Assembly (NCBI GenBank): GCA_965371465.1
Contig: CBDUYM010000012.1
Span: 15,821 to 79,820 of the forward strand
Reading direction: 5' to 3'
Origin: an uncultured Alphaproteobacteria bacterium
GTDB taxonomy: Bacteria; Pseudomonadota; Alphaproteobacteria; CBDUYM01
Length of the DNA: 64,000 nt
Made by a program: the position numbers and the translations under genes. Below are positions 61,772-62,743 of this stretch, one piece after another. How positions within the stretch are numbered: position 1 is the first letter of the stretch; each line of letters begins with the position of its first letter. Under the pieces are notes generated by a model. That model saw nothing but the letters and a program-made list of their open reading frames with translations, was not told where the DNA came from and made no database searches.

Positions 61772-62743
61772 GTGAAGAAACTGACGAAAGCTTTTCTGCT
61801 TCGATTGAAGGTTCCTATTGACGTCCTGTTTGCGGCGTTCACTGTTCCTTCCGCTCTGCTCTTCTTGGCAGTAAGAAGGGTCGGTGTGCGCAATCTGCGG
61901 CTGACGCGCAAAGTATTGCTGAAGATCGGGGTGTTCCCGATCCGTGACCATTATTACGAACCGCTGTTCAATCCAGACCACCTCCACCACAAACTGTCTG
62001 AGGATCGCAGTCTGCCAGGACTTGATCTGAATGAGCTCGGCCAACTCAATTTTGTACGTTCCCTTGCATGCGCTGATGAATTGCGGGACCTCAATTTGAG
62101 TGAACGGCGCTCGGACACAAATGACTTTTCGTTTCAGAACAGTTCTTTTGGTTCGGGAGACGCTGAATTCTTGTATCAATTGATCCGTCACATACTGCCG
62201 AAGCGCATGATTGAGATTGGCAGCGGCAATTCAACGAAGATTGCGTGCTTGGCACTGGAAAAAAATCAGGAGCTGTTTGATGCTGATTGTGAGCACATCT
62301 GTATTGAGCCCTATGAGATGCCTTGGCTTGAAGACCTTGGCCCAGAGATCATGCGCCAGAGAGTCGAAGACTGTCCACTGTCACTCTTCGAGACGCTGGA
62401 GAGTGGAGATCTGCTGTTCATTGACTCTTCTCACATGATCAGACCTCAAGGCGATGTTCTTTTTGAATACCTTACTATCCTTCCTGTTCTCAAAAGTGGC
62501 GTCTTTGTTCACATCCACGATATATTCACACCGAAGGACTATCCAAAGACCTGGATTGTCGAGGAGAACAGATTTTGGAACGAACAATATTTGCTGGAAG
62601 CACTTCTGACGGGCACTTCAAAATTCAAAGTGGTCGCTGCACTGAATTTTCTGACACATCATCACTTTCAGGAATTGAAATCTGTTTGTCCCTACCTCAC
62701 CGAGGATCGCGAGCCTGGCTCGTTCTACATTCAGGTTCGGTGA
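61772..62743 (+). CDS. Putative class I SAM-dependent methyltransferase-like protein (low GC)
   Basis: Gly-rich loop MIEIGSGNSTKIA and later DLLFIDSSH resemble motifs I and IV of Rossmann-fold methyltransferases; gene is visibly AT-richer than its neighbours. Confidence 0.45.
   Translation: MKKLTKAFLLRLKVPIDVLFAAFTVPSALLFLAVRRVGVRNLRLTRKVLLKIGVFPIRDHYYEPLFNPDHLHHKLSEDRSLPGLDLNELGQLNFVRSLACADELRDLNLSERRSDTNDFSFQNSSFGSGDAEFLYQLIRHILPKRMIEIGSGNSTKIACLALEKNQELFDADCEHICIEPYEMPWLEDLGPEIMRQRVEDCPLSLFETLESGDLLFIDSSHMIRPQGDVLFEYLTILPVLKSGVFVHIHDIFTPKDYPKTWIVEENRFWNEQYLLEALLTGTSKFKVVAALNFLTHHHFQELKSVCPYLTEDREPGSFYIQVR

Follow-up and report, generated by a model that had tools for sequence, protein, structure and literature searches.

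The methyltransferases of the Pfam family PF13578 (Methyltransf_24) form a broad family without a defined substrate. Their fold is related to that of the COMT-like cation-dependent family-3 enzymes (PF01596; 3duw, Rv0187 6jcl, CCoAOMT 5kva and SafC 5log), which are marked by an Asp/Asp/Asn metal triad and a catalytic Lys, and of several sugar O-methyltransferases, namely MeT1 (6g7d) of the mycobacterial methylmannose polysaccharide, SpnH (4cdz), CalS11 (3tos, 5hoq) and the rhamnosyl O-methyltransferase/CmcI type (PF04989). MeT1, SpnH, CalS11 and CmcI are soluble and have oligosaccharides, glycosylated macrolides or thymidine diphosphate (TDP) sugars as substrates. The gene pools for O-antigen and capsule synthesis are low in guanine plus cytosine (GC) content and are exchanged horizontally. 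Here we describe a lone low-GC methyltransferase gene at positions 61772-62743 of a 64,000-nucleotide stretch of contig CBDUYM010000012.1 from an uncultured Alphaproteobacteria bacterium; the whole of this stretch is referred to as the window. We consider, with moderate confidence in the explanation as a whole, that the gene encodes a helix-bearing PF13578 glycan methyltransferase whose low GC content is set mainly by its family, with a plausible, incompletely ameliorated horizontal transfer in addition.

The open reading frame (ORF), as given in the ORF list, lies on the forward strand and encodes 323 amino acids (aa), with a GTG start and a TGA stop. The protein matched the full PF13578 profile (positions 1-105 of 105) over aa 147-251, with an E-value of 2.8e-11 and a score of 44.6 bits against a gathering cut-off of 26.3 bits; no NCBIfam model matched it. 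A word-indexed search returned more than 7,700 proteins at E<=1e-3, the top ones being 55-66% identical over their full length, and at least 1,011 proteins matched at E<=1e-30 in a library of 50%-identity representatives. The PF13578 domain is present in every homologue listed. The window protein was aligned over its full length with 36 homologues at 54-66% identity, which gave 64 invariant columns, all 64 of them kept by the window protein. Judged from this alignment, the gene is probably intact and functional and looks to be under selection. The GTG start is credible because the homologues align from the same first residue. The features recognised along the gene are as follows.

61772..62743, forward strand: complete ORF, class I S-adenosylmethionine (SAM)-dependent methyltransferase of the PF13578 family (ORF list, Pfam, alignment and AlphaFold2 model)
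61811..61873, forward strand: N-terminal hydrophobic helix, aa 14-34, VPIDVLFAAFTVPSALLFLAV, probable membrane anchor
61922..62173, forward strand: family-specific N-terminal region, approximately aa 51-134, with the motifs FPIRDHYYEPLF, DRxLPG and GDAEFLYQ (conserved columns, outside the Pfam match)
62210..62524, forward strand: Methyltransf_24 core, aa 147-251, strands beta-1 to beta-5 of the Rossmann-like fold (Pfam; strand order from the model)
62213..62233, forward strand: motif I, EIGSGNS, aa 148-154, glycine-rich SAM-binding loop after beta-1 (sequence, alignment and model)
62417..62434, forward strand: FIDSSH motif, aa 216-221, end of beta-4 (D218, S219 and H221 invariant; strand 214-218 in the model)
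62510..62527, forward strand: HIHDIF motif, aa 247-252, after beta-5 (H249, D250, I251 and F252 invariant; strand 245-249 in the model)

The AlphaFold2 model has a mean predicted local distance difference test score (pLDDT) of 82.6, with low values of 55-58 at aa 51-80. The predicted fold has the seven-stranded beta-sheet core of solved class I methyltransferases and is nearest to the COMT-like O-methyltransferases. Motif I, in which E148, G150, G152 and S154 are invariant, follows the modelled strand 145-149, and the invariant E179 ends strand 174-178 (beta-2); the glycine-rich motif I and the acidic end of beta-2 that mark class I enzymes are both found in the sequence and in the model. An earlier interpretation made from the letters of the DNA (the sequence-only reading) had pointed to the motifs EIGSGNS and FIDSSH and proposed a Rossmann-fold SAM-dependent methyltransferase, possibly of a small-molecule or polysaccharide-modifying type. 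Both motifs are present, the Pfam match and the predicted class I fold bear out the enzyme class, and the genomic context of the homologues, described below, speaks for the polysaccharide guess.

By fold similarity and general knowledge, D218 and H221 are candidates for a metal ligand and the catalytic base, and H249 and D250 are candidate second metal ligands, an arrangement that would make the enzyme metal-dependent; the invariant residues were matched to the metal and base sites of COMT by position and not by residue-level superposition. The segment aa 14-34 contains the highest Kyte-Doolittle 19-residue window of the protein (2.17) and keeps its hydrophobic character in the homologues, with D17 and R35, both invariant, bracketing it. 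A helix is predicted at aa 13-37 in the model, and the segment is a probable membrane anchor. The region at approximately aa 51-134 probably forms a substrate-binding cap.

Compared with generic PF13578 proteins, the subfamily of approximately 324 aa to which the window protein belongs adds this N-terminal hydrophobic helix, a conserved N-terminal region of approximately 80 aa (PIRDHYYEPLF, GDAEFLYQ) and a conserved C-terminal extension (FWNEQYLLEALL, REPGSFY). The COMT-like family-3 enzymes are 13-19% identical to the window protein at a TM-score of 0.4-0.56, and differ from it in that its candidate base is His and not Lys, that it is approximately 100 aa longer, that it carries a predicted membrane anchor and that its family is found in the context of glycan synthesis and not of catechol or phenylpropanoid metabolism. 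In function the window protein appears most like the sugar O-methyltransferases of polysaccharide clusters; it differs from the solved examples, which lack its helix and the subfamily motifs. A few distant relatives have unusual architectures, possibly as artefacts of gene calling: in P0296 the methyltransferase is fused to a C-terminal phage-lysozyme domain, and P0384 and P0362, of more than 600 aa each, contain two Methyltransf_24 stretches apiece.

The genomic context of the homologues was compiled from seven loci with gene and Pfam tables and from 40 metagenomic loci. Three of the seven homologues lie inside polysaccharide clusters (P0004, P0122 and P0092), in which Wzx, Wzy/EpsG, glycosyltransferases of families 2 and 4 (GT2, GT4), a DegT aminotransferase, a sulfotransferase and an initiating transferase were found across the clusters; the other four are solitary among unrelated genes. 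A Pfam scan of the 75 nearest-neighbour ORFs in the 40 metagenomic loci gave nine Glycos_transf_1 and six Glycos_transf_2 matches, together with two each of GDP-mannose dehydratase, nucleotidyl transferase, sulfotransferase, FkbM and Wzx-type genes. Glycosyltransferases make up approximately 1-2% of bacterial genes, so their frequency near the homologues is well above expectation. At least 23 of the 40 metagenomic loci have a polysaccharide-type gene within three ORFs on either side, a count that is a lower bound from a seed-based phmmer search. Furthermore, a GT2-methyltransferase fusion exists (P0375), and a 32%-identical relative on a Gloeothece plasmid adjoins a glycosyltransferase, a GtrA-family gene and ABC-transporter genes. 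The solitary arrangement is common in the subfamily. The most likely function of the window protein, by analogy with this context, is the O-methylation of a sugar in a surface polysaccharide; it is favoured because the subfamily is found most often in Wzx/Wzy-type or glycosyltransferase-rich clusters.

The reaction may be pictured as follows. SAM would be bound at the EIGSGNS loop and the acidic E179 at the end of beta-2, and the conserved pairs D218/H221 and H249/D250 would be placed where COMT-like O-methyltransferases hold the divalent metal and the catalytic base. A sugar of an O-antigen, a capsule or an exopolysaccharide would receive the methyl group. Given the probable membrane anchor and the cytoplasmic location of SAM, this would probably happen at the inner membrane, on its cytoplasmic face, with a lipid-linked intermediate as acceptor. 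Given that the gene is solitary in a housekeeping region, the glycan on which it acts would have its other genes elsewhere in the genome. The low GC content stems mainly from the AT-rich amino-acid composition of the family, and the lower synonymous GC content together with the deviant dinucleotide signature fits a horizontal transfer with unfinished amelioration.

The locus of the closest homologue, P0002, is represented by three contigs from different samples (L001, L002 and L003), which have the methyltransferase and its downstream genes in common. L001 and L002 contain, and L003 lacks, a segment of approximately 3.2 kb that encodes MgtE, an amino-acid permease and a fragment of an rve-family transposase; this insertion/deletion polymorphism is located two small ORFs downstream of the methyltransferase.

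The composition of the gene was assessed relative to the 56 long ORFs and the 972-bp segments of the window. Its GC content is 48.0%, compared with 56.2% for the whole window and 57.3% for the local flanks. The sequence-only reading had correctly placed the ORF well below its surroundings, with an ABC importer upstream and an M3 peptidase downstream, and had put the flanks too high, at roughly 60% GC. Sliding windows of 972 bp had a mean GC content of 56.2% with a standard deviation (SD) of 2.3%, and only 0.6% of them were as low as the methyltransferase. The gene has the lowest GC content of the 56 long ORFs (the others range from 52.5% to 61.5%) and also the lowest GC content at second codon positions (GC2 of 0.33). 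The low-GC block consists of the gene and its two spacers, the adjacent 300 bp of both neighbour genes being at 58% GC, and the window has just one further low-GC stretch, an AT-rich intergenic region of 250 bp at 7708-7957.

Most of the low GC content of the methyltransferase is normal for its family. Recoded to match the codon usage in the rest of the window ORFs, the gene still reached only 51.1% GC, and approximately 5 of the 8 missing GC points (about 60% of the deficit) are therefore due to amino-acid composition. Across 48 homologue loci, whose hosts have 26-69% GC, the GC content of the gene tracks that of the host (r 0.92, slope 0.74), and the gene lies below its flanks in 39 of the 48, with a mean offset of 4.2 points. 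The family regression gives an expected 51.6% +-3.4 where the flanks have 57.5% GC, which leaves the window gene approximately 1 SD low. Relative to the family expectation from 47 loci, the GC content at first and second codon positions was at -0.5 SD and at third positions (GC3) at -1.3 SD.

Two signals are particular to this copy, one in synonymous choice and one in dinucleotides. The synonymous GC3 (GC3s) is 0.527, against 0.617+-0.038 in the other window ORFs (-2.4 SD), and the length-adjusted codon bias is at +2.3 SD. The GC-normalised dinucleotide distance (delta*) is 149, against 68+-24 (+3.3 SD), which makes the gene the most deviant 972-bp segment in 64 kb. The same dinucleotide test applied to 24 homologue loci in their own hosts gave a median of +0.3 SD with a single locus above 2 SD, and the deviation is therefore not a family trait. 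The composition is atypical in the manner of an acquired islet, yet the GC deficit is for the most part a family property. The proposal of a recent horizontal acquisition, which the sequence-only reading had drawn from low GC content, and for which it had suggested a GC and codon-usage check, thus stands on other ground: the lowest GC content among the window ORFs is mostly family composition, with the gene approximately 1 SD from the family expectation, and it is GC3s and delta* that speak for transfer. Horizontal acquisition with incomplete amelioration has moderate support and is somewhat more probable than its absence.

The locus can be compared in this respect with the low-GC polysaccharide gene pool. 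It resembles that pool in that the family is found mostly in Wzx/Wzy or glycosyltransferase clusters, lies below its flanks in most loci and has deviant dinucleotides here; it differs in that a single gene is found between unrelated housekeeping genes, with no junction repeats, tRNA or insertion sequence (IS) element. As to a donor, the dinucleotide signature had no convincing match among the flanks of all fetched loci (best delta* approximately 100). As to vertical or horizontal ancestry, no housekeeping orthologues for a comparison of divergence were shared between the window and the closest-homologue locus L001 within the fetched DNA.

Several results weigh against the interpretation as a glycan methyltransferase acquired by transfer. 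On the side of function, a sequence search of the PDB, made also with the family profile, gave no relative of the methyltransferase, and a full-text search of the literature gave nothing tied to the subfamily; as far as these tools show, it has no solved or assayed member, and the substrate therefore rests on guilt by association. Approximately 40% of the homologue loci have no polysaccharide genes nearby. In the window, no glycosyltransferase was found among the genes examined around the methyltransferase, nor among the 25 most frequent of the 70 Pfam families matched by the other ORFs. On the side of transfer, the length-adjusted codon bias is only +2.3 SD relative to the window ORFs, and GC and GC3 are within 1.0-1.3 SD of the family expectation. 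There is no tRNA gene in the whole window, no integrase, transposase or IS element adjoins the methyltransferase, and the only repeats in its flanks, direct or inverted, are matches of 12-19 nt at the level of chance.

The most probable alternative is a long-resident native gene that was never transferred, with a low GC content due to AT-rich amino acids and to weak codon adaptation at poor expression. It would account for the GC points that persist after recoding with window codon usage, for homologues that also lie mostly below their flanks, for a window gene that departs from the family regression by only about 1 SD, and for a position in a chromosomal core region with no mobility scars, tRNA genes or integrase. 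The synonymous GC content and above all the dinucleotide signature, in which the homologues are close to their hosts and the window gene is not, argue against it, and we regard a purely native origin as possible but rather doubtful. A caution follows for similar cases: low GC content in a lone gene of a mid- or high-GC genome does not by itself show recent import. What was informative here was the dinucleotide signature after GC normalisation, set against the same test on homologues in their own hosts.

The glycan O-methyltransferase function has alternatives of its own. A tentative idea, which we think unlikely, is that the helix-anchored subfamily of approximately 324 aa represents widespread uncharacterised envelope methyltransferases that act on a common conserved substrate and not on a strain-specific sugar, because hosts of 26-69% GC have proteins of 50-66% identity and solitary copies are frequent. 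If so, the common substrate could be a shared lipid-linked glycan intermediate or carrier, and the orphan described here would be a recently transferred example. It is decidedly unlikely that the protein is a membrane-associated methyltransferase for an envelope component other than a glycan, for instance the head group of a lipid or a polyprenyl carrier. Such a role would make sense of the strong conservation of the family, with top homologues from such varied hosts at 50-66% identity to the window protein, the conserved N-terminal hydrophobic helix with its invariant D17 and R35, and the frequent solitary copies, there being no recognised polysaccharide neighbour in 4 of the 7 annotated and in up to 17 of the 40 metagenomic loci. 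It is opposed by the strong enrichment of glycosyltransferases and Wzx/Wzy beside the homologues and by the existence of the GT2 fusion, and no lipid-biosynthesis genes recur beside the homologues.

It is very improbable that the window protein methylates small molecules or natural products, as O-methyltransferases of the TylF/MycF, CmcI or FkbM type do. CmcI, SpnK (TylF-type), SpnH and CalS11 are indeed among its structural neighbours, and the distant two-domain relative P0384 has a weak RMNT_CmcI match, in which the whole-protein score passes and no single stretch does. In the Pfam scan, however, none of the corresponding families PF05711, PF04989 and PF05050, which the sequence-only reading had named for checking, matched at E<=1, and FkbM genes were seen only as neighbours of two homologues. 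No polyketide, nonribosomal peptide synthetase or deoxysugar-antibiotic genes were found here or beside the homologues, and enzymes of this kind would not usually be expected to carry a membrane anchor.

That the gene encodes a methyltransferase of nucleic acids is hardly to be expected, whether as a TrmR-like tRNA enzyme or as an orphan DNA methyltransferase left behind by a restriction-modification or defence system. There was no PADLOC or PHROGs match and no adjacent nuclease or specificity gene (the sequence-only reading had likewise seen no restriction or modification gene next to it), the plasmid and phage collections contained only a few distant relatives at <=40% identity, and neither the N-terminal hydrophobic helix nor the polysaccharide-cluster context suits an enzyme that acts on RNA or DNA. 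The same searches led to the rejection of a phage, plasmid or defence origin of the gene; they gave 12 distant matches in the plasmid collection and one in the phage collection, and 20 weak matches in IMG/VR, mostly to the catalytic core only.

Taken alone, the gene described here as a probable glycan methyltransferase carries little weight, being one more member of a very large predicted glycan methyltransferase family from a poorly sampled genome. The subfamily is large and conserved, and with no assayed or solved member to date, biochemical work on one protein would allow thousands of genes to be annotated.

The methyltransferase is a solitary copy in a housekeeping region of the chromosome. 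Other ORFs of the window match the families of topoisomerase IV/gyrase subunit A, SmpB, dihydrodipicolinate synthetase (DHDPS), RelA/SpoT, RNase III and signal peptidase. Upstream of the methyltransferase lie a BrkB/YihY-like membrane protein, an ABC ATPase and a fused permease/OpuAC binding protein, and downstream follows a convergent M3 peptidase gene. The gene is separated from its neighbours by two spacers.

61677..61771, forward strand: upstream spacer, 95 bp, 45% GC, from the stop of the same-strand permease/OpuAC gene to the methyltransferase start
62744..62817, no strand: downstream spacer, 74 bp, 51% GC, between the methyltransferase and the convergent M3 peptidase

A scan of the upstream spacer gave no promoter or terminator consensus, and read-through from the ABC operon is therefore a possible source of methyltransferase transcripts. 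The downstream spacer had no terminator-like site in the scan. The Rfam search gave no match, the upstream spacer included.

Relatives of the flanking genes were collected as well, the sequence-only reading having suggested a synteny comparison. The permease/OpuAC gene has relatives at 14 loci in species-representative genomes, at 50-59% identity and mostly from Alphaproteobacteria (Maricaulis, Devosia, Hyphomonas and Oceanicaulis), and none of these 14 loci has a methyltransferase, M3 peptidase or BrkB-like gene nearby. Metagenomic relatives are 80% identical on a contig of 2,095 bp, and 66-67% identical in loci with unrelated neighbours; the former contig has a downstream tail of only 267 bp, which contains neither the methyltransferase nor the M3 peptidase. 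The best relatives of the M3 peptidase are 71-73% identical. P0394, the top-scoring M3 match, was rejected as a close relative, being an internally duplicated protein. The junction of ABC and M3 genes is kept in none of these distant flanking-gene relatives (50-80% identity), which are too remote to inform on an insertion. From the similarity of its sequences, the host organism appears poorly sampled, with flanking genes that most resemble those of Alphaproteobacteria. On the 2,095-bp contig with the 80%-identical permease (L021), a near-perfect inverted repeat of approximately 20 nt per arm, AATTGGTGACAGTATACATTT ... AAATGTATACTGTCACCAATT, was noted at 1870-1925, just past the permease stop in the 47% GC tail; it has no counterpart in the window.

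A number of minor observations were made elsewhere in the window. The BrkB/YihY-family membrane protein (57811-59400, reverse strand) has a C-terminal extension at aa 419-524, which scores 28.4 bits with the Rrf2 winged-helix regulator family and so stays below the cut-off of 30 bits. The longest-ORF start of this gene overlaps that of the divergent ABC ATPase by approximately 108 bp, and one of the two genes therefore probably has its true start codon further downstream. The ORF at 3411-3929 (forward strand, 172 aa) matches the Sf6-type terminase small-subunit-like family PF20901 with an E-value of 9e-39, in a region that is otherwise housekeeping, and by this similarity could be a remnant of a phage or gene-transfer agent. 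The AT-rich intergenic region at 7708-7957, with 24-28% GC, lies directly upstream of a HipA-like kinase gene (7958-9196, forward strand) with Couple_hipA and HipA_C domains. The kinase gene is followed and overlapped by an ORF at 9121-9588 (forward strand) with HTH_3 and DUF1488 domains. In the classical hipBA order, the helix-turn-helix gene precedes the toxin gene, and the order at 7958-9588 is reversed.

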